DNA of 63,712 nt, filler included, from Reclinomonas americana ATCC 50394 (GCA_048213135.1; 31 parts of 31 records of this genome joined end to end with filler, not necessarily neighbours in it); one strand, 5' to 3'; shown: positions 1,199-30,766, counted from the first letter of the whole stretch. Made by a program: numbers and translations. The notes: generated by a model not told the origin, from the sequence alone.

Positions 1199-1209
1199 CC
1201 CTCTCATTC

Positions 1210-2234: not shown

Positions 2235-2240
2235 GGTCGG

Positions 2241-2477: not shown

Positions 2478-2706
2478 GTCAGGATTCCCGTCTTCGGTAA
2501 GCTTTCGCCCCAGTCTACAGATCAATCCTCGTGATCGGGGCGGTGATAGAGCGCGAGTCCGGATGCCGCCCACTCGCGGGTCGACGACCGCGCGACACCC
2601 GGCTCCNNNNNNNNNNNNNNNNNNNNNNNNNNNNNNNNNNNNNNNNNNNNTTAATTAATTAANNNNNNNNNNNNNNNNNNNNNNNNNNNNNNNNNNNNNN
2701 NNNNNN

Positions 2707-3708
2707 CTCTGGGTGAGAGCGGGCAGATGGCGTTCGAGGATGCCGTGCGTGCGCTGATCCGCGAGCAGGTCGACGACGGGCGAGCCGAGGTGCAGACCCC
2801 GGCTGTGCGCGAAGTCGCTCAACGGAGGCAGCGGCGCAGCCGCCGCCTCCGCGCGCGCACTCTGTGCCCGCACCAGCAGGTGCGAAGCATCCGGCGGAGC
2901 ATTCGTGGGAATGCCGAGACGCTCGAATTGGCTGTCGGGAGCATCGTGATCGTGCAGCAGTTCGGCCAGGAGGCGCAGCATCCGCAATTCCTGTTCGGGA
3001 TCATCGAGCGGGTTCTCCTGGGCAGGATCGTCCTCGAGGTCGAAGAGCAGGGTGCCGAACACGTGCGGATTGATCTGCGCGCGGCCCGGCATCCGCAGCG
3101 TGCGAACGCCCTTCGTGAACGAGAAGGGTGCGGCCAACTCGAGATCGAGCAGCTCGGCGGGGCGGAATCTCTGCCGCATGTGGGTCGGCATGAGCGTGTA
3201 CTCCTCGAGCGGCTCGTTGGAGGGCGTGGCGCACGCGCGCATGTAGACGAAGCGACCATCGGTGACGTTGACGTGACCTCCGTGGATCCCGAACAGCGCC
3301 CCTGGTCGCGGCTCGTCGCCGGCACCATCGGCATCGGCGGTGATGGCCGATCCCGACATGTCCGTCGTCGGAGCGACCGCGAAGTAGTCGAGGATCGTCG
3401 GCGCGATGTCGATCGTCTGCACCAGTGCCTCGCTGCGGGTGCCGGCGGATCGTGTCCGCGGATCCCAGATGAAAGCGGGGAGGTGGACGAGTTCGTTGAA
3501 CCACGGCTGCACGCTCTTGGCCCACCAGCCGTGCTCTCCGAGGAGGAAGCCGTGGTCGGTGTTGACGATGAGCATGGTGTCGTCCCACATGTCGTGCTCA
3601 TCCATCAGATCGAGGATGCGCCCGAGGGATCGGTCGCACATCGACACGAGCGCCTTGTACTCGTTCCTGGCGTGTTCGACCTGCGCCGCCGGTTCCGTCA
3701 CCTTCGCA
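2707..3708 (-). CDS. Sulfatase-family hydrolase (internal fragment)
   Basis: DTMLIVNTDHGFLLGEHG, DIAPTILD, LFDLEDDPAQENPL. Confidence 0.88.
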
Positions 3709-3808
3709 NNNNNNNNNNNNNNNNNNNNNNNNNNNNNNNNNNNNNNNNNNNNTTAATTAATTAANNNNNNNNNNNNNNNNNNNNNNNNNNNNNNNNNNNN
3801 NNNNNNNN

Positions 3809-4089
3809 AAACGCGACGGCGGTGAGTAGTCGCCGGTGAGCCAATCGAGGAAGACGGTCATCCCCTCCGGCGTCACCTGGTAGATCTTGGCGTCCTGGGC
3901 ACCGGGCCGGGTGTCCGTGGTGTAGCTCACCCAGCCTCGGTCCCCCATGGTGGACAGGCTTCGGTAGACCTGGCTCATGGTGGTGTTGGACCGCAGGAAT
4001 CGGCCGTGCACGTCGAGGAACTTCTTGATCTCGTACCCGGTGCCGGGATTCTCGCCCAACAGCCCGAGGAGCAGGTATTCCAACTTCAT
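3809..4089 (-). CDS. PadR-family transcriptional regulator (3' truncated)
   Basis: LLLGLL..PGTGYEIKK...SQVYRSL...AKIYQVTPEG. Confidence 0.9.
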
Positions 4090-4172
4090 TGTCGCATCCG
4101 ATCGATTCCACAAGTAGAGTGCTTTCACACATGATGACACAAGTGGAATAGTCCGTCAATGAGGAGACCACG

Positions 4173-4864
4173 ATGACCCGAGCAACCGTGCCCACGCGCT
4201 TCGCCAACCCCCTGGACCTGGCATACGCGGTGCAGGATCAGTCATTCGGACCGTTCCGGCGCCGGGTCAACCGGGAGGCTGCCGACCCATCGGTGGTCCT
4301 CTTCCGAGACCGCTTCTACCTGTTCGCGTCGATGTCAGGTGGCTTCTGGCACTCGGAAGACCTCGCCGGGTGGGAATTCATGCCGACGCCCGGACTTCCC
4401 GTCTACGACTACGCGCCGGACGTACGAGTGATCGACGATCGAGTCGTGATGTGCGCGTCGCGCCGGAGCTCCCCCGCATCGTTCTATCACTCCGAGGACC
4501 CGCTCGGCGGGCGATGGACCGAGATCCCCGGTACTCGCGGGTTCTGGGATCCGCACCTCTTCCAGGACGATGACGGCCGTGTGTATCTCTACCAGGGGTG
4601 CTCTTCTCGAACGCCGATCGACGCCGTCGAAGTCGATCGCTCGACATTCGAATCCCTCGAGGAGCCGATCCCGGTGATCTCGAGCGACATCAGCACCCGA
4701 GGCTGGGAACGCCGAGGCGAGAGCTACGACGCGTCGACCATCCGCGACCATCCGCTTCTGAAGTGGCGACTCGGCACAGGCCCGTACATCGAGGGTCCAT
4801 GGATGACGAAGCACGACGGCGTCTACTACCTTCAGTACTCGGCCCCGGGCACGCGGCTGAACAC
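4173..4864 (+). CDS. GH43 family glycoside hydrolase (3' truncated)
   Basis: READPSVV, YAPDV, WDPHLFQDDDGRVYLY, YIEGPWMTKHDGVYYLQYSAPGT; RBS GAGGAG upstream. Confidence 0.9.
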
Positions 4865-4964
4865 NNNNNNNNNNNNNNNNNNNNNNNNNNNNNNNNNNNN
4901 NNNNNNNNTTAATTAATTAANNNNNNNNNNNNNNNNNNNNNNNNNNNNNNNNNNNNNNNNNNNN

Positions 4965-6300
4965 CCTGCGTGATGCTCAGGCTGCCCGGAACGTACACGA
5001 CGCCGGTCGGAAGCCGATCGCGGAGGATGCTGAGCGTGCTGGCTTCGGACCCGGTCGACTGCACCGCGAGCCGGTACGTCAGGAAGTCGCCGGGTCGGAC
5101 GGCGCCGCCGTTCTCATCCGTGACGGTCTTGTCGGCCGTGACGGATGCGAGGTAGTTGTCGACCGCGATCCCGATGACCGCCGGGAACTCGAACTCGTTC
5201 GAACCGCGAGCATCGAACACGGCGATGGCCGAGGTCTGACTGTTGCCGATGGCATTGCGCGTCGATGTCACCTTGGCGTCGACGGAGAAGTTGTTCGCGT
5301 AGGCCGGATTGCTCGGCGGCTGCACGCCCAGGTTGCGGATGCTCGCATTGGCGTAGTCGTTCGCGATGGGACCGGGGTTGGCGATCTTCGTCTGGGAGGC
5401 GAGCGTGTTCCCGACCGACACCGAGTCGGTGAACCCGGCGTCCGCGTCATAGATCACGGTGGCGATGTCGGCCCGCACGTTCCCGACGGGCGGAGTGCGG
5501 AATCCGCCGAACGTGATCGCCGTCGTCCCGCCCGTCTGCTGTGCGACGAGGCCGTCGTTGATCACGACCTGGCGGTTGACGTCGCCCGGGACGGAATACA
5601 CGACCATCATCGACCAGCCCGCCACCCCGTAGATGTCCATGCCGCGCGCGCTGGGCGATGCCGTGTACGTGCCGGATCCCTGCGCCTGAACGAGAGCCGT
5701 CACGTCGGCGAAGTGGCTGAACATGGCGGCGTTGCCGCCGAGCGGCGCCGAATCCGTCGTCGTCGCGGGGAATGCCTCGTACGCGATGCCCGCGGAGCCC
5801 GGCCCATCGATCGAGATGCGGGGGATCGCCGAGGGATAGGACGTCCAGTACGCGCCCGCCCAGGCGACCTGGGCACCGGCCGGGAGCTGGAGGTCCGATG
5901 ACGACGAGAGGTTGGTGCCGACGTTCACCCCGTCGACGTCGACATCGATCGTGTTCCGGGAGCCGCCCGCGGGGCTGTTCGAGTTGAACGTGAGGTCCCC
6001 GGTGGTGACTCCGTAGTTCCGCGCGCTCGCACACGAGCTCGCCGCCCAGCCCACCGTCGTGCTGCAGGTCGACCAGGCGTTCCCGAGCACGCGGATCGTT
6101 CCGCCCTCGAGGTTGTCGCTGTAGCGCACGCTCATTCCCCGCACCGCCGCTTCGGCCGGCGCGGGCGCATCGAAGACGATCAGACCGCCGACGACGACCG
6201 CTGTCGCCAGTATGAGCGCCGCAACGCGACGGAACGCGCTCCGATGCTGCGCGCGCCCGGCGATGCGCTCTCGACCCGACATCCGAAGACGCATCGACAT
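4965..6300 (-). CDS. Secreted/surface protein entering a DUF11-type repeat (3' truncated)
   Basis: GAGGGGG RBS, long signal peptide ending AEAA, SSSSDLQLPAGAQVAWAGAYW, then KTVTDENGGAVRPGDFLTYRL...DRLPTGVVYVPGS (DUF11-like). Confidence 0.78.
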
Positions 6301-6452
6301 CCCCCTCTGATGGCACCAGAGACGATCGACTCTCAGCGGATCAGCACTTTGACGCGTGACATCCTTAGGCTCTCCCGTCGCTTTCCGGCGCACAAGAAAA
6401 ATGATTTATGTACCATCTGCGCCGCGTGTTGCCCACCGCGGGCCGAGAACGA

Positions 6453-6487
6453 CGAAGTGCCCGCCGCCTCTCGGCGCGGGCACTTCG
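6453..6487 (-). terminator. Intrinsic terminator-like hairpin
   Basis: CGAAGTGCCCGC...GCGGGCACTTCG inverted repeat about 10 bp after the stop at 6498. Confidence 0.7.
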
Positions 6488-6497
6488 GAACGCGGGC

Positions 6498-6584
6498 TCA
6501 CTCGTAGGTGGCGAGCCTCATGGTCGCGGTCGCGCTGTGCGCGGCCATGCCCTCGGAGTCGGAGATGACCTGCACGGCGTTCGC
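6498..6584 (-). CDS. C-terminus of a histidinol dehydrogenase-like protein
   Basis: ANAVQVISDSEGMAAHSATATMRLATYE* matches the HisD EGxxAH C-terminal motif; only 28 aa visible. Confidence 0.6.
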   Translation of the reverse strand, partial: ANAVQVISDSEGMAAHSATATMRLATYE

Positions 6585-6684: not shown

Positions 6685-8160
6685 CAGGCATGAGCTCGAG
6701 CGTGTGCGTCAAGTTCGACGTGGCTAATACCAGTGGCGAGGGCACCAGCTCCACTGGTCTGTATGTCAATGGTGCCGCACCGACAAACACCGGCTCGATC
6801 AATCTGACAAGCAGCAGCATCACCCTCGGTAACGGCAATGTGATGAACGTCAGCATGACGTACAACGGCACCACGTTGTCGGTCACCATCACCGATAGCA
6901 CCACGTTGGCGACTGCCACGCAGTCGTATACTGTCGACATTCCGGCCACCGTGGGCGCCAGCTCAGCATGGGTCGGCTTCACGGCAGGCTCATCGTTGTC
7001 GGGCAGTGTTGTGTACACGCTGTCGTCATTCACATTCGCCGACCAAGCAGCGTCCACTGTGGTGACAGGTCTGCCGGCCATTGCCGTATTGAATGTGGGT
7101 GCGACGGCGCTGACACCAACAGTGTTGACACTGGCGACTGCCACCACGGTGACTTTGTCGGGCAACCAACTGGCGACTGGCGACACGGTCAAGGTGGTGC
7201 CGAACTCGCTGCAGGTTGCCGGCTCTCTGCTGGTGTCGATCGATGCCAGCACGCTGCCACTCGGTGCAGTGACGACGGTATCGAATAGTGGCACGTTGGG
7301 TGGCACCTTCACCGCGGCCGGCAGCACAATGACGGTGGCGGAGCAGTTTGCGGTGCGTGGACTCGTGTTTAACGGCACTGCGTACATGGCGCATTCCGTC
7401 GCGACACCACCGACGACGCTGGTAGGCAGCAAACCGTCGTTCACGATTGAAGTGTGGGCCTTCAATCCGACTGTTGAGTCTGTGGAATGGTTGGTTTCGT
7501 GGGGCGTTCGATTGACCTACAGCCAGATCTCTTTCGGCGCCGGTTCCCACACGGGTTGGGGGGCGGTGTCTCATTTCAACAGCGATGTAATTTGGAGTGC
7601 TGGAGGACCGCCGACAGCGAACGCCTGGCACCTGTTGACGTACACGTCGGATGGCACGACGGATAGAATTTACATTGATGGCGTGCTGTCCAACACCGCT
7701 ACGCAGGTGTCGCTTGTCATCAGCAGCGCGGTACCGATTACACTCGGATCACAGTACGACTCAAGCGGAGTGGCATATGCTGTTGGGCGCCCAACGCTCA
7801 CCATGGCTCGTATCCGTATCCACAGCGGTGCTCTCTCTGCTGCGCAAGTGCTTGCCAACTTTCAGCAGGAGCAGTGTGTGTTCCTGTCGGCAGTGGTTGT
7901 CGGCGGCAGTCCCTTGTCGGTGGCCACTGCCGGCACGCTGTTGGTCTCCATGGACGCCACTGGACTGGCGCTGGGTTCTGTTAGCACAGTCAGCAACACT
8001 GGATCACTGGGCGGTGTCTTCACGGCGACAGCGAGCACCGTGACTGTGGAGCTGACGAACGGTGCTCGTGGTCTGCAGTTTGACGGGACGGCATACATGC
8101 CACTGTCGGTAAGCACGCCTGCGTCGCTGAAAGGCTTGCGTCCGGTTCTCTCGATCGAGG
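6685..8160 (+). CDS. Fragment of a large surface protein: L-type lectin domain, partial Ig-like repeat, and LamG/concanavalin-like domains (second one partial)
   Basis: VKFD..N..GEG...TGLY...YNGTTLSVTITD...AWVGFTAG (legume-lectin-like); FTIEVW...WHLLTYTSDGTTDRIYIDGV...RIHSGALS (LamG); LLVSIDA/LLVSMDA domain start repeated. Open across the whole contig. Confidence 0.8.
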
Positions 8161-8260: not shown

Positions 8261-9887
8261 CGTACCAGTCAATTGTTCTCGTCAGCAACAGCAGCTTGTG
8301 GGTGCTACTCGATGTGTCGAGCACGGCTGCTGGCACGTATGCCATGTGCATCCGGGATCGGCCAGCCGGAGTGTACGTGCTGGCCGGGTCGGTGACCGTC
8401 GGTAAGTTGTCGTTACAGGGCAGAAAGAAGAGAGGAGCAGGGAAAGGGAGAAGCGATGGTAGAAGGCAAAGGTAGACGGTGCAATAGAAGATATGGAGTT
8501 TGGGGACAGAGGCACAGAAAGAGTGAGAGCGATTGCTTCAGAAAGTGTTGATGACTGCTTATTGGTGGTCATGTCGCGCGCATCGTCGTGTTTGTGGGGC
8601 ATTGAAAGAGTGAGGGCAGAAGAATGCAGTGTTCAGAATGCGTTGGTGACTGCTTATTGGTAGTTTTGTCACGCGCACTTTCATGGAAGAGGAGGGAAAA
8701 GAAATAGGAGACTAAGGTACGGAGAGAAACAGACGGCATGTGGCAGAGGAGAAGGAGAGTGATGACTGCAGATTTGTATGCAATGCATGTTGTTAGTGCT
8801 GCATGGCGACGTCATTCTCTGCCCTCTCCACCTTCCCCTGACATTGTTTTTGCTGCCTCGCTGCAGTGCAAGCCACCATGTCAGTATCGACAATTTCAGC
8901 GGCCGCTGCTCAGGCCATTGCACTCACGGGCGGCAGCATGAACAACACCAGCGCCGACGCCGTGGCATTCATCGTGTCGGCTGACTGCACTGCGGCGTCG
9001 CCAGCAGTGGTTGCGTCGACCAGCGTGAGTGCGACGTTTGTGAGTGCCGCGAGTATCAATCTCTCCGTGAACGCCACCGGTGCCACTGCTGGAGCGTACT
9101 CGCTGTGCGTACGCTGGACATCCGGCAGTGCGTACCAGTCGCTCGGATCGCTGTCCATTGGTAGAGACGATGATGCGTGCGTGTACGGTTTGTTGATGTG
9201 AGCTGCTCATTCTGCTCTGCAGGCAATGCTGCTCCCACCGACATTGCGCTTTCGAGTCTCACGTACGCCGTTCCGACCACGATGAACGCCGTGGTGGGCA
9301 CACTGTCGACCACAGACGCGAACGCCGGCCAGACATTTACATACACAATTGTGGGCGGCGCCAATGCGACAGCATTTGCCATCGTCGGGTCGCAGTTGCA
9401 AGTGCAGACGGGTGGTCTGGTCGACCGGCAACTGCGAGTGACGATTCGCAGTACCGACAATGGCACGCCCGCGGCGTCGATCACCAAGTCATTTGTTCTC
9501 GCTTCAGGTGCAGTATGCGCAGGGGGTGGGATGCGAGGAGAACACACTCTTGTTTGACGACCTCACCACAGCTGCATCGCCGAGTACCGGTTGTCCGTGT
9601 CAGCGGAGTTCTGCAGTTGACCCACCAGGTTTGCTTTCATTACTGCTGCCGACTCTGCCCTTCCTTTTCTTACTTTGGCACTATGGTGTGCCTCGCAGTC
9701 GGCCTGGAGGTGTGTCAGTTGGAGAATGTGGATCGTCCGGGCAATGTATACGCCGCGCACAACGTGAGCAGCGCGAGTGCGTGCTGCATGAAATGCGATG
9801 GCGACGCTGCTTGTCAGGCGTGGGTGTTCCTGGATGCCGCTGCTGCGTCGAATACGACCGGAAAGTCACTGTGTCACCTCAAGGTCT
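8261..9887 (+). CDS. Eukaryotic multi-exon surface protein: Ig-like repeats + cadherin domain + PAN/Apple domain
   Basis: Exons <8261-8401, 8867-9160, 9223-9507 (NAAPTDIALS...VGTLSTTDANAGQTFTYTI...FAI...VTIRSTDNGTP, cadherin-like) and 9699->9887 (ENVDRPGN...CCMKCDGDAACQAWVF...CHLK, PAN). All introns GT-AG, phase 1. Confidence 0.8.
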
Positions 9888-9992
9888 NNNNNNNNNNNNN
9901 NNNNNNNNNNNNNNNNNNNNNNNNNNNNNNNTTAATTAATTAANNNNNNNNNNNNNNNNNNNNNNNNNNNNNNNNNNNNNNNNNNNNTGCAG

Positions 9993-11525
9993 TGACTGCG
10001 GTGTCGGTAGTGCCGGTCGTGCTGCCTGTATTTTCCGCTCTCGGCACGGAAGTTGTAATCTCCATTCAAGGGTATGGAATGCAAGACGCGGACCTATTGC
10101 TGCTAGTCAGCAGCACCGCGTCGTGTACCGCCGGCGCGCCACCGCCAAATCTCATCGGCTTCACCATGACACGCCCGTCGCCGTCACTGTATGAGATTTC
10201 CATTGGACTGCAGGTACCACTTGCAGTTGCCGGCACCTACAAGTTGCGTCGTGGTGTCCATCCTCCCGCCAGCGTCCGCACCTTGTTGCTAAAGGCACTA
10301 TGGCAGACTGTGTGTGCGACCGGGCGGTGTCAGTCCGCTGTTACAGTTCGGCGATGTGGCTGGCCAGCAAATTCTCACGTTTGGTATGTGTGTGGTGTGT
10401 TATTGTGGACAACTCTGGTGTCACGGAATCTCACGCCTGCCCCTCTCTCACCAAGTTCGCACCGTGTCCATGTCGCCGACTCTGTTGGTGGCCGACAGCG
10501 TGGCGAAGCGGGTGACGATCTCTGGCTACGGCATGGACGCCAGTCTGGAGTACTTTGTCGTGGTGCGCGACTCGGCGTCGTGCTCGGACAGACCTCCCAT
10601 GGCGGTGGGGCAGGCCGTCACCGTGCCGGCGTTGAGCAGCAGCAACGCGTTGATGCTGGATGTCAGTGTGCCTTCTACGACCGCCCAAGCGGGCACCGGT
10701 CTCCAGCTGTGTGTGCGATACTGGCCCGTGGACGGCACCGAGTACGATTACTTTCCCTTTGACTCGGTTGCCAGCAATCGATTCTCAGTTGGTGAGGTCG
10801 CGGCTACGTGCCACTGGCCTCTTGTATCGTCTCACCAACTCTCTGTGGTGTGTGCGCTCACAGTTGCACCGTGGTTCGTGGCACCGGTGCGCATTCCCGT
10901 GTTGCTGACGGTGCTCGGCAGCGAATCGATCGTGCTCACCATTGTCGGCGGCAACATGCCGCTCGGTGGTTCATACGCACTCGTATCCGGCGCCAACACG
11001 TGCTCACCACTGCCGCCGAACGTGCCGCCCACTGCCTGCCCAACGACGTGGACCGAGACCGTGAATGGCGACGGCACCACCACCACGCAACTGAGCGTCA
11101 CCGTACCCATGCCAGGCTCGGCCGGGGCCGGTGGCTACCACTTGTGCTACCGACCACTCACTGCCGACCTCAGCGTGCAGTGGGGCGCCGTCATGGACGA
11201 TGCTGTGATTAATCTCGGTTCGTGCAACGGCGGATTGTCGCCAACGTAATGTTCTTTTCCCACATCATCCTTGTGCTCGTGCTCGTGTCTGCAGTTCATG
11301 TGCACGACATTGTCGGTGCGTTGGTGGCAGATGGGGCGGTGCACACGGTGCGCGTTCGAGGCGTGAACCTGCTGGAGACGCGGGAGGCGTTCCGCATGGT
11401 GTCGGCGGGTGGGTCGTGCCTCACGGATCCGTCGGTTGGGTTTGTCGGCATGCCCACTTTGGCGGCGGTGGATGTGATGGAGGTGCGGAGGGGGAGAAGG
11501 GGAAACGGGGAAGGGGGAAGAAGGG
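9993..11525 (+). CDS. Eukaryotic multi-exon surface protein, Ig/IPT-like two-Cys repeats
   Basis: Exons include 9993-~10242 + ~10306-10383, 10456-10791, 10864-11217 and ~11295 onward; each module ends with a LCVR/LCYR motif. Confidence 0.75.
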
Positions 11526-11879
11526 NNNNNNNNNNNNNNNNNNNNNNNNNNNNNNNNNNNNNNNNNNNNTTAATTAATTAANNNNNNNNNNNNNNNNNNN
11601 NNNNNNNNNNNNNNNNNNNNNNNNNAATCACAGGCGGGGAAAGAAGTTTAGGGAGAGAGAGATACGGCACGAGATGGATAGGGAGGGAGGGAGCGTGAAG
11701 AAAAGCCTCCTTTTCTCTGTGCTTTTGTGATCACTCGAGTGCGTGTCCATGTTTCTCTCTCTAAATATATCGCTTGAGCCTGTTGCACTTTTACTGCTGG
11801 TGTACTCTTTGTGCCGTTCCTGTGTCAACTCTCGTACTCTCTCCCCTCCATGTGTGCTGAAAAGACAAATGACTGGCAG

Positions 11880-14148
11880 GTTCCATATCGGCTTGTCTTT
11901 GCACTAGTGGCCTCCACACGACCGTGGCAGCTGTGCGTGCGGTTTACGCACGACATTACTGTCAGCACCGGCGTATATCCGTGGTATCCTTTCAGTTACG
12001 CCAACAACAATCGACTGTACCTGTCGTACGTGTCGCTGCGAGTGGTCGATGCTGTCTCGTTGGCAAACACTGGCCTGCCCGGTTCGTGACTCTCCTCGGT
12101 CAACACCATTGCTGAGAGCTTCTGATCTTTTGCCACTTGCAGTGGTCTACTACGGCCAGCGACAGCAGTTCGACTTTGTGTGCGAGAACCCCACGGCGAC
12201 CTCTGGCCGATTCGCGATTACCACCGACCTGCAGCAGGTGCCGGCTCCAGAGGCGGTGACGTCGGTGTGCGACGAGCACACAGAGAATGTGTTTGTGTGG
12301 AGTGTGCCGGAGTACCGGGCGTTTGATCGTACCTTTGATCCGCCGTCGCTGGCCGCCGCCGTGCGACCGGTGACGATTGGTGTGCGAATGAGTGACAATT
12401 CGACAGCGCTGGTGGAGGCTGCGCTGGTGGAGCGCTCTATCGAGGTCACGTATCCGCCGCCCGGCTCTACGCTGACGCGAGTGGATTCTTACGATATCAA
12501 GTGGATATGCAACTGGCCGCTGGTGACGCGCGTGTCAATCAAGCTCGTGTACACGGGGGAACAGGAGCACGAGTTCTCGCTTGTCGGTGAGTAGAAGGGG
12601 GAGATGGTGACGGAAAGGAGAGTGCGTTGACTGACATTCACGGATGTGTGTGTGCAGATGACTATGCCAGTGTGTGCGATGGTGTGACGGTGAACACGGT
12701 GTCGTCGCCGGTGATGATCACTGATGATGCGGTGGCGGGCAAGAATACGTATCGCATGGTGGTGGCCGATTATCCCAATGGTCGGCTTGCGGGCGCGGGG
12801 ATCTACAGTGTGGATGGTGAGGGGGAGGTGGAGAGGGAGAGAGGGGGAGGGAGGAGGGAGAAGGGAGGTGGAGAGGAAGAGAGGGAGAGGAGAAGGGAGG
12901 TGGAGAGGGAGAAGGGAGAGGGCGAGGGAGAGGAAGAAAGTGAAGGGAGAGGAGGAAAGAGAAGGGAGAAGGAGAAGGGGATATTCGTACTGAGGGAGGT
13001 GCAAACAGATAAAGAGAAGAGAAAGAGAAACGTGGAGGAAGAGTGATAGATCTGTGGGGTGAGAGTGAGCACGCCAGTGGTGTGAGCACCTCCAAGGCAA
13101 TGTGGACTTCTTTGTGTGAGTGATGATATGTTGGCACTGAACTCGTATCTCTTACATTGCTCTCTGCAGTTCCGCGCATCTCTGTGACCACGCCGGTGTA
13201 CGGCTCGGTGGCTCTGACAAATGACACTCTTCCTATCTCGTTTTCGTGCACTCGTCAAAACATGACTGACGCCACCATTGTAGTCCTCGGTGAGTAGGAC
13301 ATCAGGGCCAGCAGGAATACAGTGCAGCTTCCTCATCGCTTGCTAATGTGCACAGATTCTTTGTGGAGCCTGGATTCCTTTGGTACCATTCACAGTATTC
13401 TGTTGGCAGGCACAACAAGCAGTGGTGCGTCTGCATCGGAGCGTGCATTCATTCGCGGTGGTGCGGGTCCGTATCGTCTCGACGAGAATGATCCGCGCAT
13501 TCTTTACTACTCGGTCGTGCATTCTGCGTGTGGACCACTTGGCACACCGAACGTTGTTTCGTGGGTACCAGACTTTCCACAGTTACGCCTTTGTCACGAA
13601 CCGACCTCGCCGCATCTCGTCACTTAATTTAACGCTTCTCTCTGTCACTCACATAGACAAGAGCCGACCACCAGCACTCGCGCTGCCGACCAACCACTGA
13701 GATTGAGATCGCAGCCCATTACGCAAGACTCGTGGCTGCGCGCGTGGATCATCGACGTCAACAACCCCACGGCGCAGATCATTGGCGGCTCCGACGTGTT
13801 CCGCGTGGTGGCACCGTCGAGCCCGGAGGCTTCGTTGGCTGGCTCGCTGGTGTCGGTGCCCGTGGACGTTGGCGGTGACCCTGCGCTTGATCCGCCTGCC
13901 GCCACTGGTGGCAGCTCGAGTTCTCCATCAATGTCAGCGACCATGCCTTCGGCAGGCACCGATTCGGTGACAACGACGACGACGGCAGTGAGTTGCTCCG
14001 GATTCATGTGCTGGTGGTGGCCTTTCTCCGTTGCCGCTGTGGTACTTGTTGGTATCTTGGTTCTGTGGTTTGTATGCTGCTCGTCTCGCAAGCTACGCAA
14101 GACAACAGAGGAGGACGAGTTGGTGAACAAAGAGCTTGTCGCTGCCGG
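11880..14148 (+). CDS. Eukaryotic multi-exon type I membrane protein, C-terminal part
   Basis: WQLCVRF repeat end, further exons, a Ser/Thr/Pro stalk, then TM WWWPFSVAAVVLVGILVLWFVCC followed by SSRKLRK. Exon boundaries approximate. Confidence 0.65.
12820..13045. repeat. Polypurine (GA-rich) low-complexity intronic tract
   Basis: Almost pure G/A; similar tracts at 15020-15090, 22323-22490 and 25460-25560. Confidence 0.85.
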
Positions 14149-14380
14149 TGAGTTTGCTTGTGGTGGCTCTCTCTCTCTCTCTCTCTNNNNNNNNNNNNNN
14201 NNNNNNNNNNNNNNNNNNNNNNNNNNNNNNTTAATTAATTAANNNNNNNNNNNNNNNNNNNNNNNNNNNNNNNNNNNNNNNNNNNNAGGAACAGGCTGTA
14301 GCATTGGGAAGTGTTCGAGGCAGCCAATTCTGGGAAGAGATTTTCTGTGTGTATACTCAACCGGGTTCTGTCGCATTGCA

Positions 14381-15542
14381 GCCCGCCGCCCACGTGTACA
14401 AGCCCGTCAAAGAGGTGCATCTGCAGCATGTTGCGCTCGGCCATGACACGGTCCTGGGATTCGGCGTGGGACTGCATGTTGTGCGAGCAGTGGAGGGCGT
14501 GTCGGCGTATGCTGCAGTTGCGCACCCGTCAAAAGAGCTTGCTGCGCGTGTGTGCGTGGACGACGAGTGAGCTTACAGTCGTCGATTCTACTCGTTTGTT
14601 GCAGCCCGTACTCGGCATGCAGGCGTCTCCATCGCTGGTCGTGCTTGATCGCGTGCTCTTTGTCAACTGCGCCAAGACAGTTGAGACTGATCCGACGCTG
14701 AGCGACGCGAATGCAACGTCAGTCGTGTCTGTGGAGCGACGCGGCGGCACCACCGAGAGCACCCTCTTGCTTCCACACGGTGCAGCATACGGAAAGGAAA
14801 TTGCGGCGCAAGTGGACAGCGGCAACGCTGCCGGCTCGTCCATTGCGCAGCTGTGGCGTCGTGCTCTGCGGCGCAATTTGCCGTTTGCTTTCAAGATTGC
14901 TGGTCGCCTTATGTGCGTCATTTTGGCCGTGGCCATGTCGGTGGCCACCGTGACTACCATCACCAAATTCCGCACTCAAGAGGAGGACATGGCGGTGGTG
15001 AGTATTTCATGTGGGCGCGAGAGTGGAAGGAGAAGGAGAGGGAGAGAGAGAAGGAGAGGGAGAGAGAGGAGGGAGAGAAAGGAGAGGGAACTCCTCTCTC
15101 GCTCTCAAAGTCTCAAGCTCGTGCCCGTCTCCTGCTGCCAATCTCTCTCTCTTCTCTGCAAGCGAAAGACAAGGGGATAGAGCGAGAGAAGCAATGCGAC
15201 TGACTCACTGCCGTGCCCTTCTATCCGTAGACCACGTCGTCTCTGATGAGCGACGTGCTTCATGCACTGGTGCTCGAGCCGGTGTGGTTGATATTGTTGC
15301 AAGTGGCGGCGTGGATGTTGTGGAAGTGGAGATCGTGGCAGCGTCAGAAGAAGCAGCAGGACAGTCAGACACAGCCGCAAGGACTGGAGCCGACACAAAC
15401 TGAGCAGATGCAACCTGCTGCAGCTGGGGAGGAGCAGGAAGCAGCCGCACGCAGGCAACAAATACAAGAGCAGCATGAACAGGAGAGGCTGCAGCGGCGT
15501 CAGCAGGCGCTCGAACGGTTCCGCACAGGTGTCGTTGCGTGA
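14381..15542 (+). CDS. Eukaryotic hypothetical membrane protein, 3' exons
   Basis: Spliceable ORFs with two hydrophobic segments (LMCVILAVAMSVATV; VLEPVWLILLQVAAWMLW) and a Gln/Glu-rich tail ending RTGVVA*. Confidence 0.5.
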
Positions 15543-15875
15543 ATGAAGGAGAAGGACAAGCTGTGAGCGGGGGAGAAAGGGGGAGGGAGAAAGAGCACAG
15601 CAGGAAATGGAGGCAGGTGGGGAAGAGAACAGAGGCTGCAAAACAATTTAATGGGCGAGAAACATCAGGTGAAGAACGAGAGGCTACCGAGTAACAGGCT
15701 GGGAAAAATAGAAACCAACGGACGAAGTCGACAACACATGGGCGAGAAAGGATTGACCGCGGCAAACCCACAGGCAACAGGTCAGTAAAGAGATCGAAAA
15801 AAAGCAAGAGCGAGAGAGGCCTATCGCACTCTCTCTAATACAGAAAAATCCAGCGAGGCAGTTGCCATTTTCTTC

Positions 15876-16289
15876 TCACCAACAATGGCTGGGATTAGCG
15901 AGACACCGGTGCATCACAACCTCGGCGTCCTCGACGATGAAGCAGCGCAGCACCAACTCTGGCAGGCACCGCGAATCCAATGCCTCCTCTGTGCTCTCCT
16001 GCATCCGCTGGACAACCTGCATGGCCGAGTGCGCGGTGGCGAGCTCGGAGTGAGCAAGGCCGCTTGGCGTCGGCCACACTCGTATCGTATTGTCGAGGCC
16101 ACCGGCACTCACAATGTGCCGACCGTCGGGGGTGATGGCGACGGACCACACCCAATGCGTGTGCCCATCCATCCGTCGCACTTGCTCTCCACTCGCCAAC
16201 GACCACACTCGCACAGTCTTGTCCTCACTCCCACTCACAGCGTGTTGCCCGTCGGGAGTGACGGCGACACACAAGACAACGGCAGTGTG
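15876..16289 (-). CDS. WD40-repeat protein with conserved C-terminal tail (5' truncated; paralog of 50477-51662)
   Basis: VAVTPDGQHAVSGSEDKTVRVW repeats; tail TPSGLAHSELATAHSAM...DSRCLPELVLRCFIVEDAEVV. Confidence 0.92.
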   Translation of the reverse strand, partial: HTAVVLCVAVTPDGQHAVSGSEDKTVRVWSLASGEQVRRMDGHTHWVWSVAITPDGRHIVSAGGLDNTIRVWPTPSGLAHSELATAHSAMQVVQRMQESTEEALDSRCLPELVLRCFIVEDAEVVMHRCLANPSHCW

Positions 16290-17660
16290 NNNNNNNNNNN
16301 NNNNNNNNNNNNNNNNNNNNNNNNNNNNNNNNNTTAATTAATTAANNNNNNNNNNNNNNNNNNNNNNNNNNNNNNNNNNNNNNNNNNNNCCACGTACCTG
16401 TCACTGTGTTGCTCTCTTGCATGCACAAGGTGGAGGTGGAGCATTAGGTTGCTGTGGCACCTGACTCAGCATGCAGAACCTGTTGTGGACCAGTCTCTGT
16501 GTGGTCACCACTGGGCCGGTGTTCGAGAGAGTCTGTGATGGATGTGACCCTGCTGCCATTCGGCGATGCCCGTTGCTGCTGTGGAGACTGTCAGTGGGCG
16601 CACGCCTCACAATCATTAGAGATATCCTGGTCACACGCGTCTGGACGCGTACGTCTGGGTTGTCTCCGCTCAGCGAACCTGAAGCCGGTTGCATTACTGG
16701 TTGCTGGCCGCTGTACTATCTTGCAGGCATGCTGGCCAGCGCTGTGGACGGAGAGTAGTCTGTGGAAGCATCAGTTGCTTGTGTTCCTCTCGGCAGTTGA
16801 AGTGCTACTGTGCTCCCTCGTTTCGATGACATGGACATGGATTGATGTTGATGTCGGCAGCGTCGCGGAGACAGTGCTGGTGCTGGGGCCAACGTTGTTG
16901 GCAAGCGTGCTGTTGGCAAGCATCTCCTTTTGTGCCGGGTTGTCTGAGACAGAATTTCGTGCGTCGTCTGTTGCCGTGTTGCCGGGTTCTGAAATCCCTT
17001 CTGTCTCGCACTGGTTCAGCCTCCGTACCACGTGAGGGTGAGAGATCCCGCAAGGATGCAACCAGTGCATACGGCAGCGAACGTTACGCCAATAATGGTG
17101 ACCAACTGAACGATCACCACTTGTGAACGTGTACACGCGGTGCATGTATTGACTGGTCGTGTTCGCGTATTGCAGTCGTGTGTTGCTGCTCTTCGAGTTG
17201 CGGGGAGTTTGTTGCAGTTGCGGCCAGTGTGCATGCGCGCGAGTAGTCGAATTTGGCGTGTTTATGCTGCAGTGGGGGACGCCGGATTTCGTTCTTGCAA
17301 AATTCTTTCTTCTGGCGGAAGGTGAGCAAGTACCACCCCCCCGTGTCGTTTCATCCAGTCACCCACTCACTTGTGCGTCTCCCTCGCCTTTATATACTGT
17401 TCAGCCACAGGTGGCCGTCGCCTGGCTTTGCTACACGCACAAGCCACATGTTCTTGTCCGATGCCGTGAATCGGTGTGCACATGGAGGTGAGCGAAGTGT
17501 GGTCGCACGGCATGCCTCGCGCGCTTGTTGCACCGCTCCTCATCATTCCTTCTCTTCGTCTCGCTCACTCACAGCAGTTGGCGGCAACTGCCCGGCAGTT
17601 GGTGGTGGCTGTGGACGCCGGCGGCGGAGATGGCGCGCCCCCGCCCTGCCCTCGGCAGCC

Positions 17661-17726
17661 ATGCTGACGTTGCTGGTGATCTGGATGGGCCTCGTTGCCG
17701 TTGTGATGGCCGCCTCGGAAAACGTG
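17661..17726 (+). CDS. First exon (signal peptide) of a eukaryotic secreted protein
   Basis: gcagccATG, MLTLLVIWMGLVAVVMAASENV, then donor GTGCGC. Confidence 0.5.
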
Positions 17727-18041
17727 GTGCGCACGTGTGTTTGCAGTTGATGTGCTGCAACGCATGTTGACACTAGTACTCTCGTGCCTTTGCCAGAAGG
17801 AGGAAGGAGCCGGTGTGGAGTTCGTGACTGCTCACGCAGCGCCCGTTTATGTGGATGGAGCGGTGAGGCAAACTTGCTTCAGTTAATTACTGTTCTTGTG
17901 AATGTCGGCCTCCCGCACTCACGAGTGCGTCGCAATGTGCANNNNNNNNNNNNNNNNNNNNNNNNNNNNNNNNNNNNNNNNNNNNTTAATTAATTAANNN
18001 NNNNNNNNNNNNNNNNNNNNNNNNNNNNNNNNNNNNNNNNN

Positions 18042-20375
18042 CGACAAATAAACACACTCTGTCGCTCTCACACACACCTGCAGTGATGACACTCGCTCCC
18101 GCCTGATACACTATCGGATCCGGAGGGAACTGCACACACACGCTGTACGGTCCCACCGCAAGCAGGTCGTTCACCGACGCCGCTTTCGCCACCAGTTGTC
18201 GTGCTCCAGCAATGCCCGTCTCGGCCGTGCTCTGCAGCGGCACAGGTGTCGCCACTCCAGCACACGTTGAGCCAGCGACAAGAGTCACCACGTTCGGTGT
18301 TGCCAGTCCACGCCCGAGCACCGTCAGCGCAGCGCCCGCTTCCTCGGCATTGATCAGATTCGGCTGGAACCCTTCTGCCGTCGGATCTGTGCACCAAAAC
18401 TCGTCAAAACCAATCCACGCACAACCTGCAATCATCAGCATCATCCTCGTCGCCACTCACATGCTGTCAACTGCGTCGCCGAGATCTGCGAGAAGCTGCC
18501 AGCGCCACCATACTGAATGCTGCACCATGTCTCCACACAGTAAGCAACGTGTCGCCGCAAATCATCGTCGCTCAACAGACCACCCTCCATCTTTTCCTCT
18601 CATTCACCCCACTCACCACACCGCATACGCATTCACTGGAACCCACGCGTCAGTCGGCACCGTAATCACCGTCGTACGTGCTCCAGCCATGCCGCCCATC
18701 ACCAGTGCCGTCGCAGGGAACGACGCAAGCGCTCCCGCACCACCAGCCCCCGGTGTGCACGAAACACCAGCCTCCAGTCGCACAACATCCGACGCCCGCA
18801 ATGCAAGGCCACTCAAGGTGAACTTGTCGCCGCCAGCCTCGGCCCGGATGCGCGCCGGCGAAAACGCCGTTCCAAGCGCCACTGCACACTTCACAGTGAG
18901 TCCACCGCACCATATCTCTTCCCCCGCCTTCTCTCTCTCTCTCTCTCTCCCTCTCACGCACCTCCGACAATCTCCGTGCTCCCGACCTTGACAAACACAC
19001 CCGGCTGCGCCAGATACTCCACGCACACACTGAACGTGTCCGGAGGAGTCGCCTGCAACAGCAGACCCACCCCGCCAATCACACCCACAATCTGTGTGCG
19101 CGCCACATTCGACGACAGCGTCGCCACTTGAAGACCGCCACTCGTCATCGTCGCACAGCTCGTTCCGGTCTCCAGTCGCATTCGCGTCACCGTCCGCGAA
19201 ATGTCAAGAGCAACGCCGCTCACCGTCACCGACGCCGTCGGAACCTCCGCTGAAATAGACACCGGTCCAAATCCTTGCGTCGACGCTGCGTGAAGAAGAA
19301 CAGACCAACCGTGTCAGTCCACACGCACAAAATGACCTCCGTCACAATGGCAACACAATTCTCCGCCGCACGCAACGAACAAACACGTTGCCCGGCACCT
19401 TGAAGTACGTCCCCAGTGCCGAGAACCGAATGCACAGGCTGTACTCAGCACTCGGCAGTCCGCCACCACCCACGCTGATCGTCAGCGTCGTCGCACCACC
19501 GCCAAGTGTCGATGTGCCACTGGCATTCACGGTTCCCATCACACCACCCCCGCTGCCGCTGCACAGTGTCCCCGGCTCAAATCGCACCTGGCTCGCTGCA
19601 TCAATGTACACGCCAGTGATCGTGAACTGCGCACTGGCCGTCGTCGCCAGCACCGTCTCAGGCGTGAACGAAGTTGCATTGGCTGATCACACACACACAA
19701 CGGAGTCAGCATCAACTCAGCACCACTCCATAATTTCGACGCCCACTCACCGATATTCAGCGGCAAGGCATCCTGGTACGGGTCCGACGGCGCCCATCGC
19801 ACGCACACACGACGCTGACCAATGCTGCTTGCCCCGTTCGCGTCCACCGTCAGCACAATCGACGCCGCGCTCACAAACTGGATGCTGGTCACCGTGGCCA
19901 CCGACGTCGGCGACCCACTGCACGATGCTGCCACCACAAACGCCCCGCTGTCGGCCGACACATCCACAAAGCCGAGTCCCGAGAGAGTCACAGTGCGTCC
20001 CGCAAGCGGCTCCACAGTGGGCGGTGTCGTGGCACTGAATGACGCTGCATCGGCGAAACACGCTCGTGAGTCATCATCAAGCCACTCCCTTCCTCTCTCT
20101 CTCTCTCTCTTCACCCACTTCCGCCTCGACCACTCAGATTGCACAAACACTCACTCACCAACACTCAGCGGCAACACCGAAATGTACGGCACCGTGCTGC
20201 TCCACCGCACACACAGCTGCCGCGCAGCTCCCGTCGCTCCAGTCGCATCAATCGTCAACGTCATCTGCGTCGTCCCCGCATACCCACTCACAACAACAGA
20301 CGTGTTGGCTGCCACAGTCGGCGCTGTCGTTGTCGGAGTCGAGCAGCTGGCCGCGATAATAATGGCCGACGCATC
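18042..20375 (-). CDS. Eukaryotic giant surface protein, tandem Ig/IPT-like two-Cys repeats (internal fragment)
   Basis: Exons 20375-20159, 20044-19751, 19682-19377, 19285-18962, 18881-~18617 + ~18520-18461 and ~18387-18079; module boundaries at phase-1 GT-AG introns. Confidence 0.85.
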
Positions 20376-20475
20376 NNNNNNNNNNNNNNNNNNNNNNNNN
20401 NNNNNNNNNNNNNNNNNNNTTAATTAATTAANNNNNNNNNNNNNNNNNNNNNNNNNNNNNNNNNNNNNNNNNNNN

Positions 20476-22222
20476 AAAGGCCACACCAAGCGTCGCAGAC
20501 CGCAGGTCCAAGAAGCCCGCCCCATTCAGCGTCACCACCTGGCCTGATCGCGCATTCACAGCCGGCACCGATGTCGTGCTGAATGTACCTGCAGCGCGCG
20601 CACCACAGATCACGTCAGCACCTGTCGTTGCCAAAACGAGACAACCAAGTCACGCAACTGACGTTGATCGGCGACACCAACGAGTACTGCGCGTGCGTCG
20701 CATTGCTCCATCGCGCACACAAGCTGTACACGCCGCCCGCAACACCACTGGCAGTCGACAGCAGACTCATGCTCGTCGACCCGCTGAGGTACGTCCCGCT
20801 TGACACACTAATCACCGCCGCCGACGCCGTCGATCCGCACGATGTCGCAATCACGAACGCCGCTCCATCACCAGACACGTCCACAAACCACGTACCCGTC
20901 ACACTCAGCGGCTGCGATGCCACAGCGCCCACCGCAAGCGGCACAAGCGACCCGAATGACACTGGATGAGAAATGGATCAGTCAACGCACAAGCACAACA
21001 GAAACACACAGCCGCACACAACCAGCACAACTCACCAACATTGATCAGCGTCACAGCAGTCGTCGAGTACAGTGCTGTCGACTGCCACCGCACGCAGATC
21101 TTGTACGATCCCACCGGGATGCTCGTCGCGTCAACGACAAGTGCCACCAGCGACGTACTCGTCCACGTGTGTGTCAAAGTCCCCACGGCAGTCGGCGCCG
21201 CCGTGCTCGGTACCGTGCAGTCTGCCGCGATGAGGTACGCCAGTGCATCTGATCCAGCATTCGCCAGCGCCGTTCCCGACAGCCGCAAACTCCGTCCACT
21301 CAATCGCACCATCGCCGTTGGGTTCACAGACGTCACCTCGGCCACAACAAGTTGTACCGATCCAACCAGTGAAAAGTTGCCGACGTTGCCGAATCGGATG
21401 CACACTGCACAGTATCCGGCACTCACAGCCGCCGTCGTCGCACCCTGCGCTGTCACCGCCAGTTGTCGAGCTCCCGGTCCGCCACTCACCGACCCATTCA
21501 CCATCACCGGGAAGCTGCCGCCACTCGCCGTGCACGTCATCGATCCCACCTCCAGTCGCACAACATCATTCGTCGACAGACCTCGCCCGAGAACCGTAAA
21601 CGCCGCTCCAGCTCCCACTCGATTGATCACACTCGGCGTGAATCCAGACGTCGTCGACACTGGTGTGTGCCACAAAGTCAGCCATCCAACTCATTCTCCT
21701 CCGATTCCCCTTCCCTCTTCCCCCCACAATCAACTCACCTCCAGTAAACTCCGTCGTCCCGACCTTGAAGTACGATCCAGGTGTCGGCGAGTACTGCACG
21801 CACACACTGAACGTGAACGGCGGCGTTCCAGTCGGCAGCAGCAGTCCGTTGCCACCAACTGTCACGGTCAGCTGCGTCAGCGCTCCGTTCGCCACAAATG
21901 TCGCCGCCTGCGTCGACAGCGGATTCGTTCCAGTGCATGCCGTCCCCGGCTCAAACTGCACTCCCACAATCGCCGTCGTCGGAATCAGATCCGCTCCGGT
22001 GATCACCAGAGTCGCCGTCGCATCCTCCGCGAGAATCGATGCAGGACTGAATGTCAGACCGAGTGCTGCACCCACCCACAGCGACATGGTCAGTCACACA
22101 CCACACAACACACAGCACAGCACAGCAGTCAAGGAGGATTACTCACGGACAACCAACGACGTGCTGCCCACTTTGAAGTACGATCCGCTTGCAGAGAACC
22201 GAATGCACACACTGCATCCATG
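20476..22222 (-). CDS. Eukaryotic giant surface protein, tandem Ig/IPT-like repeats (probably upstream part of the 18042-20375 gene)
   Basis: Exons 22222-22147, 22065-21739, 21659-21036 (two modules), 20961-20659 and 20588-<20476; all phase 1. Confidence 0.85.
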
Positions 22223-26500: not shown

Positions 26501-27063
26501 CAGCTGTCGAGTCCGATCGGCTTCCAGATCCCGCTGGTGGCGACATCGATGCCCCAGTCCCAGCCGAAGTTGGATGCCGTCTTGCGGAGCGCGTTGTAGG
26601 GGTGGTGGTTCGTGTGCGGGCGCGGTCCGTGGGCGGCGCTGCGAGCCTCGGCCTCGGCGATGGGCGAGGCGAAGGTGATCACCAGGCTGTTCTCGCCGTC
26701 GACGAGGTGCGGGCGCACGTCGAAGCGGTAGCTGCGGTGCTGGTTCTCGGTGCGGCCGACCACCGCGCCGTTGAGCTCGATGGTGGCGACCGTGTCGAGT
26801 CCTTCGGCGACCAGATCGTGTCGATCGGACCCGTCGTCCTGCCAGTCGAATCGAGTCTCGTAGCGCCAGACCGTGCTCCCGATCCACTGCTGCTCGGCCT
26901 CGTTGTCGCCGTCGAACGGCGGTGCGATCAGCCCGGCGGCGAGCAGATCGGTATGCGCGCATCCGGGGACCGTCGCCGGGATCGATGCGCCGCGGACCGC
27001 TTCGGGCACGGGTCCGTCCGCGGCCGTGAGGGTCCAGTTTTCATGCAGGGGGCGGAATGCCAT
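26501..27063 (-). CDS. GH2 beta-mannosidase, N-terminal part
   Basis: ATVPGCAHTDL, EGLDTVATIELNG, LRKTASNFGWDWG...GIWKPI. Confidence 0.92.
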
Positions 27064-27108
27064 GAGCGTCCTTGCGTCGGGGGCCGAATCAACGTTCTTA
27101 CTGCTGCT

Positions 27109-27133
27109 ACTTTATTACATAGGTTAACAAAGT
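27109..27133. promoter_or_regulatory. Putative ROK-family operator
   Basis: 25-bp imperfect palindrome ACTTTATTA-CATAGGT-TAACAAAGT between the divergent GH2 and ROK genes; AT-rich in a high-GC context. Confidence 0.65.
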
Positions 27134-27188
27134 CGGTAGAGTCATCGGGAGATATGATCCGGATGTCAGTGGATCGAAAGCAGGACAG

Positions 27189-27604
27189 GTGGCAGACGCA
27201 CGAGGCGGTTCGGCATTCGATGCCTGGCCCTACCTGACCGGCGTGGAACGCGGCGCGCTGCGCGAGCTCCTCATCCATGGCGCACTCCCCCGCGCCGAGA
27301 TCGCGCGTCGCATCAATGTATCCCGAGCCAGCCTGACACGCGCCTCGCGCGTGCTGATGGAGCACTCGCTCGTGGCCGAGGACGAGATCGCGCTCCGCGG
27401 AGCCATGGGACGACCGAGCGAGATGCTCGTCATCCGCGAGGACACCCACCATCTTCTCGGGATCAAGCTCACCGGAGATTCGGTCTTCGCCGTCGTCACC
27501 GATCTGCGCGCCCGCAGCGTCGCCGAGGTCGAGGAGCGGCTCGTCTCGACATCCGTCGAGGACACCGTCGACCAGATCGCGGCCATCCACGCGCGCTTCG
27601 CCCG
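27189..27604 (+). CDS. ROK-family transcriptional regulator (3' truncated)
   Basis: HTH RAEIARRINVSRASLTR, GRPSEML, LGIKLTG...VVTDL. Confidence 0.9.
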
Positions 27605-30025: not shown

Positions 30026-30053
30026 TCGGCGAGCAGCGTAGAGCAAGGAGACC

Positions 30054-30666: not shown

Positions 30667-30766
30667 NNNNNNNNNNNNNNNNNNNNNNNNNNNNNNNNNN
30701 NNNNNNNNNNTTAATTAATTAANNNNNNNNNNNNNNNNNNNNNNNNNNNNNNNNNNNNNNNNNNNN

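Follow-up and report, generated by a model that had tools for sequence, protein, structure and literature searches.

In the passages of Patthy 2021 on which we draw, class 1-1 module shuffling is treated as a metazoan feature (PMC8001218). Smithers et al. describe alignment of exon and domain boundaries across eukaryotes, including some protists, and the portion of that work used here cites the excess of phase 1-1 exons as metazoan (PMC6547436). In brown algae, ROCO and NB-ARC-TPR genes carry one LRR or TPR per symmetric exon, an arrangement read, in the sections cited, as shuffling or duplication that permits in-frame alternative splicing (PMC11378527). Here, we analyze a window of 63,712 bases (the whole stretch of DNA under study) from the assembly recorded as Reclinomonas americana ATCC 50394 (GCA_048213135.1). 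Five of its contigs likely hold gene fragments for large type I cell-surface proteins in which the ectodomain is a chain of divergent IPT/TIG modules, with one module per symmetric phase 1-1 exon. What is new here is an IPT/TIG subfamily of protist surface proteins that is divergent and for the most part without annotation; its fold class was already known.

The module genes resemble the metazoan class 1-1 genes built from Ig, FN3 and EGF modules, as portrayed in the cited passages of Patthy 2021 (PMC8001218), in that one extracellular domain occupies each symmetric phase-1-flanked exon, several domain types are arranged in this way in one gene, and the modules carry a disulfide-type Cys pair. 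They differ in that only one module type is seen to be multiplied and that the background may be rich in phase 1 (6 of 10 control introns). With the brown-algal genes they share a non-animal lineage and long arrays of one repeat per symmetric exon, whereas the algal exons described in the cited sections are 72 bp, in phase 2, and encode single LRR motifs of candidate immune receptors (PMC11378527), compared to phase-1 domains of ~100 residues here. The IPT/TIG family (PF01833), known from plexins, Met/RON, EBF and the C-terminal region of NFAT/Rel proteins, has in common with our module a seven-strand E-set sandwich, the N-terminal pattern P...G..vtitG.gF...v.vg...C and an occurrence in tandem arrays in receptor ectodomains. 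In contrast to that family, the modules described here have a second Cys in the motif G.Y.[LV]C[VI][RQ][WFY], the window copies score below the Pfam cut-off, and the named carriers are protists, mostly Euglenozoa.

When the five module contigs are read in three frames, open stretches of ~100 codons alternate with short GT...AG intervals. A profile built from the modules, run against all 1299 stop-to-stop open reading frames (ORFs) of the window, found 19 modules (11 full-length and 8 partial), and the reversed-sequence control gave 0 matches; the count of 19 is partly circular because the profile was made from those same modules. The initial annotation had claimed more than 15 modules on five contigs within positions 8261-22222. 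All 19 lie on five contigs of that range, which spans seven in total; by profile, the two others, 14287-16289 and 16390-17941, hold no module. The nine complete exon lengths listed in the initial annotation (294, 336, 354, 294, 306, 324, 327, 303 and, for a double module, 624 bp) are exact and all divisible by 3, and an additional complete exon of 348 bp (18078-18425) brings the phase 1-1 set to nine single-module exons and one double-module exon (Table 1). Within single exons, profile matches extend from positions 1-4 to 98-99 of 100. Every exon is open, with its conserved Cys, Gly and aromatic residues retained, and 18 aligned copies give the consensus P...G..G[FL]...C...G.Y.[LV]C[VI][RQ][WFY]...Y. 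Two subtypes had been proposed, and both are real: type A (5 copies) ends in ...LCVRW and type B (6 copies) in ...C[VI][EQR][FY]...F/Y.KVG. The division into two is incomplete, in that the contig at 9988-11525 carries a third, divergent group of 3 copies. Copies of the same type, A or B, are 24-43% identical and copies from different groups 12-25%, which indicates that the modules are old duplicates and not a recently homogenized array.

The structure of the module was predicted with AlphaFold2 from the 18-row alignment. The model is all-beta, with seven strands, a predicted local distance difference test score (pLDDT) of 94 and a predicted template-modelling score (pTM) of 0.83, in agreement with the earlier expectation of an Ig/IPT-like beta-sandwich with two conserved Cys. 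The strands reach from residue 2 to residue 96 of an exon product of 97 residues, so that exon equals domain and the exon ends coincide with the ends of the fold. In a Foldseek search of the PDB, the IPT/TIG domains of EBF3 and EBF1 were on top, with Met, NFAT, CAMTA1 and plexin lower, at E-values of 3e-3 and weaker and TMq of 0.52-0.65; PD-1 and glycoside-hydrolase domains were interleaved among these rows. VIA-align against 48,161 representative chains placed IPT/TIG domains in all top six positions (Z 8.9-10.1, root-mean-square deviation (rmsd) 1.9-2.3 over 80-81 residues): the EBF3 IPT domain at Z 10.1 (rmsd 1.9, 80 residues), EBF1 at 9.6 and 9.0, Met at 9.3, Plexin A1 IPT3-6 at 9.0 and Plexin A4 at 8.9.

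Profile comparisons point to the same family. TIG is the only Pfam family reported for both module exons that gave sub-threshold hits, and the module profile, compared with PDB sequences, matches Plexin-A4 (E 0.025) and an IPT/TIG protein (E 0.12). The same profile, run against 1.84 billion proteins, matches P0119 at E 2.1e-7 over 19 stretches, and this protein is itself matched by Pfam TIG at E 7.7e-232. Aligned with hhalign to 21 repeats of P0119, the window modules gave a probability of 79.8% and an E-value of 1.4e-5 over 42 columns; the first Cys of the module aligns with the Cys of a "G..C" stretch in the repeat consensus, and the match stops after it. The second Cys, in strand F, is a mark specific to the two-Cys subfamily. 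On the basis of the fold and profile matches, we file the module as a divergent IPT/TIG (E-set Ig-like) subfamily and not as a new fold. The suggestion in the initial annotation that the module belongs to no named family is thus not borne out, although its Pfam scores are sub-threshold.

The same profile recovered relatives well beyond the window, with 224 cluster representatives at E <= 0.001 in the search of 1.84 billion proteins, of which 75 reach <= 1e-10 and 9 reach <= 1e-30. Among the best 150 matches, 147 proteins contain 414 instances of the module. Conservation is 90% and 89% for the two Cys and 92% for one Gly; of the 359 instances with both Cys columns covered, 347 have the pair, and 88% of the 414 instances have no other Cys. 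Paired Cys without others fit one intradomain disulfide, which the two residues would be predicted to form. In 13 relatives, adjacent modules are mostly 0-4 residues apart, in agreement with the direct exon-to-exon joins predicted in the window.

Nine of the 30 matches that we looked up carry species names: the diplonemids Sulcionema specki, Artemidia motanka and Lacrimia lanifica; Euglena longa; Papus ankaliazontas; Fabomonas tropica (twice); Guillardia theta (XP_005832561.1); and a 1188-nucleotide contig labelled as a Formivibrio metagenome-assembled genome (MAG). By group, the relatives are mostly euglenozoan, ancyromonad and cryptophyte. The relatives from Euglenozoa and other protists, known from EukProt transcripts, share with the window genes the same two-Cys module in tandem, signal-like N-termini and segments resembling transmembrane (TM) helices; they differ in that all are "hypothetical" or without a name. 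Annotation of the family is sparse. In 24 relatives, Pfam TIG was above cut-off in 6 and no family at all was found in 12; TIG reached 20.3 bits in P0063 and 16.8 bits in one of eight further relatives, and 19 of the 32 relatives scanned received no Pfam family call. A protein-cluster atlas returned only eukaryotic clusters; in one of them 41% of the members carry TIG, which serves as a lead only. Two plainly bacterial proteins are also matched, P0049 (RHS repeats) and P0057 (Por secretion tail), which indicates that the profile also touches bacterial Ig-like domains. A single module searched against the JGI metagenomes found no relative, and a homologue search with the double module, restricted to longer proteins, gave no match. 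In the literature library searched, we found no paper on this two-Cys IPT/TIG family and none on phase 1-1 exons for extracellular modules in Euglenozoa or comparable protists (supplements not covered).

The best library match, P0001, represents a cluster of 11 and is 7348 residues long, with 32 module stretches. In eight assemblies it was called as one uninterrupted frame, on contigs of 22-69 kb; it is an intronless giant relative whose ends are rich in N, S and E. A 2692-residue member of the same cluster (P0152) has no Pfam family and no locus in the prokaryote genomes searched.

Placement of these proteins at the cell surface, as proposed in the initial annotation, is supported by the end of the contig at 11626-14186, which encodes a Ser/Thr-rich stalk, one hydrophobic TM helix and a short charged tail (13712-14148), as well as by features of several relatives. 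The Lacrimia and Papus proteins have a hydrophobic signal-like N-terminus and one TM-like segment near the C-terminus; a TM-like segment is also present in the proteins of Artemidia, Fabomonas and Euglena longa, the first of which has a C-terminal SAM domain as well. The description "giant" fits the relatives, which are 1,100-7,348 residues long, and not the contigs themselves, none of which has more than six modules. The module has as neighbour domains, across the window and the relatives, cadherin-like, PAN, LamG_3, SAM and FG-GAP domains. In the window, the PAN_4 (PF14295) match of the exon at 9699-9887 covers profile positions 1-51 of 51. The cadherin-like exon at 9223-9507 is weakly identified: Pfam Cadherin scores 16.1 bits vs 28.8 (E 0.015), protocadherin gamma-B4 matches at E 0.008, and the structure model is poor (pLDDT 65), with no Foldseek row at E <= 0.001 and protocadherins only among the weak rows. 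A role in adhesion or recognition is probable.

We propose that the ectodomain would be a chain of divergent two-Cys IPT/TIG modules of ~100 residues, encoded in a GC-rich, intron-dense microbial eukaryote and interspersed with cadherin-like and PAN/Apple domains (LamG in relatives), and that the chain would end in the Ser/Thr-rich stalk, one TM helix and the short tail. The arrays may have grown by tandem duplication of an exon-plus-intron unit, in which case the phase-1 boundary would have been inherited and not gained repeatedly, and the proteins would presumably be expressed and spliced as predicted. Module exchange between genes, that is, true exon shuffling, would be compatible with these data.

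In the module genes, 21 firm GT-AG introns are predicted, 19 in phase 1 and 2 in phase 2. Both phase-2 introns lie inside modules near the second Cys, one two codons before it (10243-10306) and the other in the Cys codon itself (18520-18616), as the initial annotation had stated. It had also stated that module boundaries are marked by phase-1 introns; 13 of the 14 module-to-module boundaries are interrupted by a GT-AG intron, all 13 in phase 1, and the exception lies inside the 624-bp exon. A further intron at ~13565-13711, which would be in phase 0, is tentative and stands outside the 21. Retention would break the frame, by an in-frame stop or a shift, for 19 of the 21 firm introns. Eighteen of the 21 measure 61-191 nucleotides, and the others 35, 353 and 465. 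A CT[GCA]A[CT] branch-like motif lies 17-33 nucleotides upstream of the acceptor in 10 of the 11 introns examined (chance ~0.10 per intron), the donor is GTGAGT in 9 of 21, and the exon ends in G at 14 of the 19 phase-1 introns. Cullin, Ubc12-like, WD40 and glycyl-tRNA synthetase (GlyRS) genes on sister contigs have the same intron signals. To judge from these signals, the interruptions in the module genes are ordinary spliceosomal introns.

The donor GTTGCG(T) occurs in 5 of 31 introns, at 10243, 19376 and 20658 in module genes, at ~43733 in GlyRS and at ~45722 in cullin, and GTTCGT occurs twice, at 11218 and 12082; their recurrence suggests a second accepted class of 5' splice site in the host. 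In the cited parts of the literature, most diplonemid donors are G/GTATG, a YTRAY motif is present in 2-16% of introns (PMC12621601), and D. papillatum has 1.6 introns per gene (PMC10161547). A diplonemid origin was not adopted, since the GTGAGT donors (9 of 21) and the branch-like motif (10 of 11) are unlike the diplonemid patterns in those parts.

The window consists of 31 contigs of 1-4 kb each, separated by N spacers, in two G+C classes. Contigs of 0.63-0.69 carry bacterial genes, encoding Lnt, TatC, a sulfatase, GH43, GH2, solute-binding and permease proteins and FtsX/ABC, and 12 of the 13 tested match a complete 4.1-Mb bacterial genome (G001) at 98-100% identity. The GH43 contig (27705-29404), which is of high G+C, has no match in G001 and may be a strain-specific island or part of a second bacterium. 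Contigs of 0.55-0.61, all module contigs among them, carry eukaryotic genes with spliceosomal introns, including those for WD40, a cullin C-terminus, a Ubc12-like E2 and a Sortilin/Vps10-like protein, and an ORF with collagen repeats. Because the high-GC contigs are nearly identical to G001 and the others are eukaryotic, the window represents a bacterial assembly or bin with admixed contigs of a microbial eukaryote. In practice, this means that the assembly record holds bacterial and eukaryotic contigs together and that the contamination should be flagged. An Rfam scan of the whole window gave 0 matches, hence neither ribosomal RNA nor spliced-leader RNA.

Several observations weigh against reading the contigs as fragments of genes for large, multi-module IPT/TIG surface proteins. 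The window modules remain below the Pfam TIG gathering score (17.9 bits, E 0.003, and 11.6 bits vs 20.9), and the hhalign match to P0119 is confined to the N-terminal half of the module. Losses of Cys among the relatives are too rare for the co-loss test (p = 0.11). The best library identity to a window module is 62%, and the named protist relatives range from 17 to 62%. No signal peptide is found on any contig and each has at most six modules, so that "large" and "one protein" rest on the relatives. All splice junctions are predictions. One predicted intron (18426-18460, - strand) has only 35 nucleotides, and two of 72 nucleotides (10384-10455 and 10792-10863) keep the frame and contain no stop, which makes read-through possible. 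The 35-nucleotide intron is required for the frame between two module exons; either 72-nucleotide intron, if retained, would add 24 Cys/His-rich residues between modules and leave the protein unbroken.

As a control for intron phase, we used ten anchored introns from three non-module genes. Three come from the Ubc12-like gene and are all in phase 1, as claimed in the initial annotation; GlyRS has five, in phases 1, 1, 0, 2 and 0 (placed with the help of homologues), and the cullin C-terminus two, in phases 2 and 1. For want of unambiguous introns, we left out the Sortilin/Vps10 junction and the ends of the WD40 gene, and a codon log-odds model and codon-position G+C were too weak for an unbiased ab initio intron scan. 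Phase 1 thus accounts for 6 of 10 control introns, which is not significantly above the usual 30-33% (p = 0.08-0.09), and for 19 of 21 in module genes, a difference that is not significant (Fisher p = 0.07, or 0.17 with the tentative phase-0 intron); pooled, the figure is 25 of 31. All 16 domain-boundary introns are in phase 1, a nominal difference from the 6 of 10 in the control (Fisher p = 0.014), with, almost certainly, very few ancestral introns behind the 16.

These figures are explained most economically if an exon-plus-intron unit was duplicated in tandem within a genome that may be rich in phase 1. The 13 introns at module boundaries would then probably all derive from a single ancestral intron spread in this way, and not from 13 independent events. 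Taken further, this account would dispense with shuffling altogether: a general phase-1 bias, with G before the donor, together with duplication would make the match to animal 1-1 modules a coincidence. The phase-1 counts in the control and overall, the G-ending exon at 14 of 19 phase-1 introns and the age of the duplicates, for which a conserved boundary fits inheritance, all agree with this explanation, to which we give a little less than an even chance. However, the control comprises just ten introns in three genes, its phase-1 share does not significantly exceed the usual level, and heterologous domains in the same genes likewise lie in their own phase-1-bounded exons. Alternatively, the initial annotation may have been correct to see an exon-shuffling system, with IPT/TIG-like, cadherin-like and PAN cassettes swapped between genes of a non-animal lineage as an independent or ancestral counterpart of the metazoan one. 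The part of that claim that stands is the phase-1 bounding of the cadherin-like, PAN and other non-module exons. Beyond the repeated module, there is a phase 1-1 cadherin-like exon and a PAN exon entered in phase 1; fold ends match exon ends; domain order varies among relatives, with cadherin-like then module in P0063, module then cadherin-like in the window, and LamG_3 combined with modules in P0002 and P0072; and the contrast at domain boundaries is that given above (p = 0.014). Less certain is phase 1 as a distinguishing mark: the control is itself phase-1-rich (60%; p = 0.07). In addition, only ~4 boundaries are independent if the 13 reflect one inherited event, and the 444-, 159- and 120-bp exons of the anchor gene, which lack the two-Cys module, are also in phase 1-1, which hints at a gene-wide or genome-wide bias. 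A contig with lectin and LamG domains (6685-8160) holds several domains in one intronless frame of 491 codons. On balance, we regard shuffling as possible but less likely than not.

A different objection is that these are not functional eukaryotic genes, but bacterial Ig-like adhesins broken by sequencing errors, or decaying pseudogene repeats. Contigs 98-100% identical to G001 dominate the window, and the profile also matches P0049 and P0057. However, the module contig at 18042-20375 has no match in G001, module contigs have lower G+C than bacterial ones (0.56-0.61 vs 0.63-0.69), and the reading frames are interrupted by canonical GT-AG introns, most of which have a branch-like motif, and not by random frameshifts. 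The exons are open with Cys, Gly and aromatic positions kept, and the splice signals are common to the cullin, Ubc12-like and GlyRS genes. We consider this explanation very improbable, and retain the reading of the contigs as fragments of eukaryotic surface-protein genes.

Table 1. Features of the module genes and contig groups in the window (positions counted from its first base)
Feature	Position	Strand	Basis
Module-bearing contigs	8261-9887, 9988-11525, 11626-14186, 18042-20375, 20476-22222		Profile matches
Module, C-terminal part, at contig start; phase-1 GTAAGT donor at end	8263-8401	+	Profile positions 53-98, i-E 4e-11
Type A module exon, 294 bp, phase 1-1	8867-9160	+	Reading frame, profile
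Cadherin-like exon (tentative), 285 bp, phase 1-1; weak donor GTGCAG	9223-9507	+	Pfam Cadherin E 0.015; protocadherin E 0.008
PAN/Apple exon, phase-1 entry, runs off contig	9699-9887	+	PAN_4 E 3.2e-11, 43.5 bits vs cut-off 27
Module with internal phase-2 intron 10243-10306 (GTTGCG donor), two codons before Cys2	9988-10383	+	
Divergent module exon, 336 bp, phase 1-1	10456-10791	+	Reading frame, profile
Divergent module exon, 354 bp, phase 1-1	10864-11217	+	Reading frame, profile
Further module, N-terminal part, phase-1 entry	11295-11497	+	Profile
Module, C-terminal piece around Cys2; phase-1 GTTCGT donor; upstream exon off contig	11880-12081	+	i-E 0.005
Membrane-proximal exon, 444 bp, phase 1-1	12143-12586	+	No family match, no PDB sequence match
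Two small phase 1-1 exons, 12658-12816 (159 bp) and 13170-13289 (120 bp), with a 353-nucleotide GA-rich intron between	12658-13289	+	
Exon of ~70 residues, then Ser/Thr-rich stalk, one TM helix and short charged tail; phase-1 donor at contig end	13356-14148	+	
Type A module, C-terminal two thirds, at contig start	20160-20375	-	Profile
Type A module exon, 294 bp, phase 1-1; copy used for structure model	19751-20044	-	
Type B module exon, 306 bp, phase 1-1, GTTGCG donor	19377-19682	-	
Type B module exon, 324 bp, phase 1-1	18962-19285	-	
Type B module with internal phase-2 intron 18520-18616, in Cys2 codon	18461-18881	-	
Type B module exon, 348 bp, phase 1-1; 35-nucleotide intron before it	18078-18425	-	
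Type B module, C-terminal end, at contig start	22147-22222	-	Profile
Type B module exon, 327 bp, phase 1-1	21739-22065	-	
Double-module exon (type B then type A), 624 bp, phase 1-1, no intron between modules	21036-21659	-	Profile
Type A module exon, 303 bp, phase 1-1, GTTGCG donor	20659-20961	-	
Type A module, N-terminal third, at contig end	20476-20588	-	Profile
Contigs matching G001 at 98-100%	1-6584, 26501-27604, 29505-33904, 38060-41855		Nucleotide comparison

Other genes of the window were noted in passing. The lectin contig at 6685-8160 (+) combines legume-lectin-like and LamG_3 domains in its single frame and may belong to the same protein family as the module genes. The GlyRS gene (42900-44700, -) is bacterial-type (alpha2) in a eukaryotic gene structure; its exons match G001 C1:3075262-3076404 at 72-77% nucleotide identity in three collinear pieces. 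The Sortilin/Vps10 match (E 4e-12) lies in two overlapping frames of 491 and 632 codons at 34593-37756 (-), with no clear canonical intron at the join. An ORF at 46008-46304 (+) on a eukaryotic-type contig matches the Pfam Collagen triple-helix repeat (E 4.6e-11). The intron upstream of the Ubc12-like exon (25454 to beyond 26100, -) exceeds 600 nucleotides and is CT-rich and of low complexity, with near-repeated blocks, compared to ~70 nucleotides elsewhere.

It is possible, though less likely than not, that class 1-1 cassettes of IPT/TIG-like, cadherin-like and PAN type, each in an exon of its own with phase-1 bounds, are what a microbial eukaryote distant from animals uses to build its surface proteins. 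If it does, intron-mediated shuffling of extracellular domains, metazoan-only in the passages of Patthy 2021 cited above (PMC8001218), arose independently or is much older, and in-frame skipping could vary the arrays; that skipping varies the surface coat, as suggested in the initial annotation, is pure speculation. If our reading of the module genes holds, a clear non-animal 1-1 case would bear on the predominance of class 1-1 and on the restriction of exon shuffling to animals. It would also define a coherent, unannotated two-Cys IPT/TIG subfamily of 224 cluster representatives, which appears to build large surface proteins in Euglenozoa and some other protists, organisms whose cell-surface biology is poorly known.

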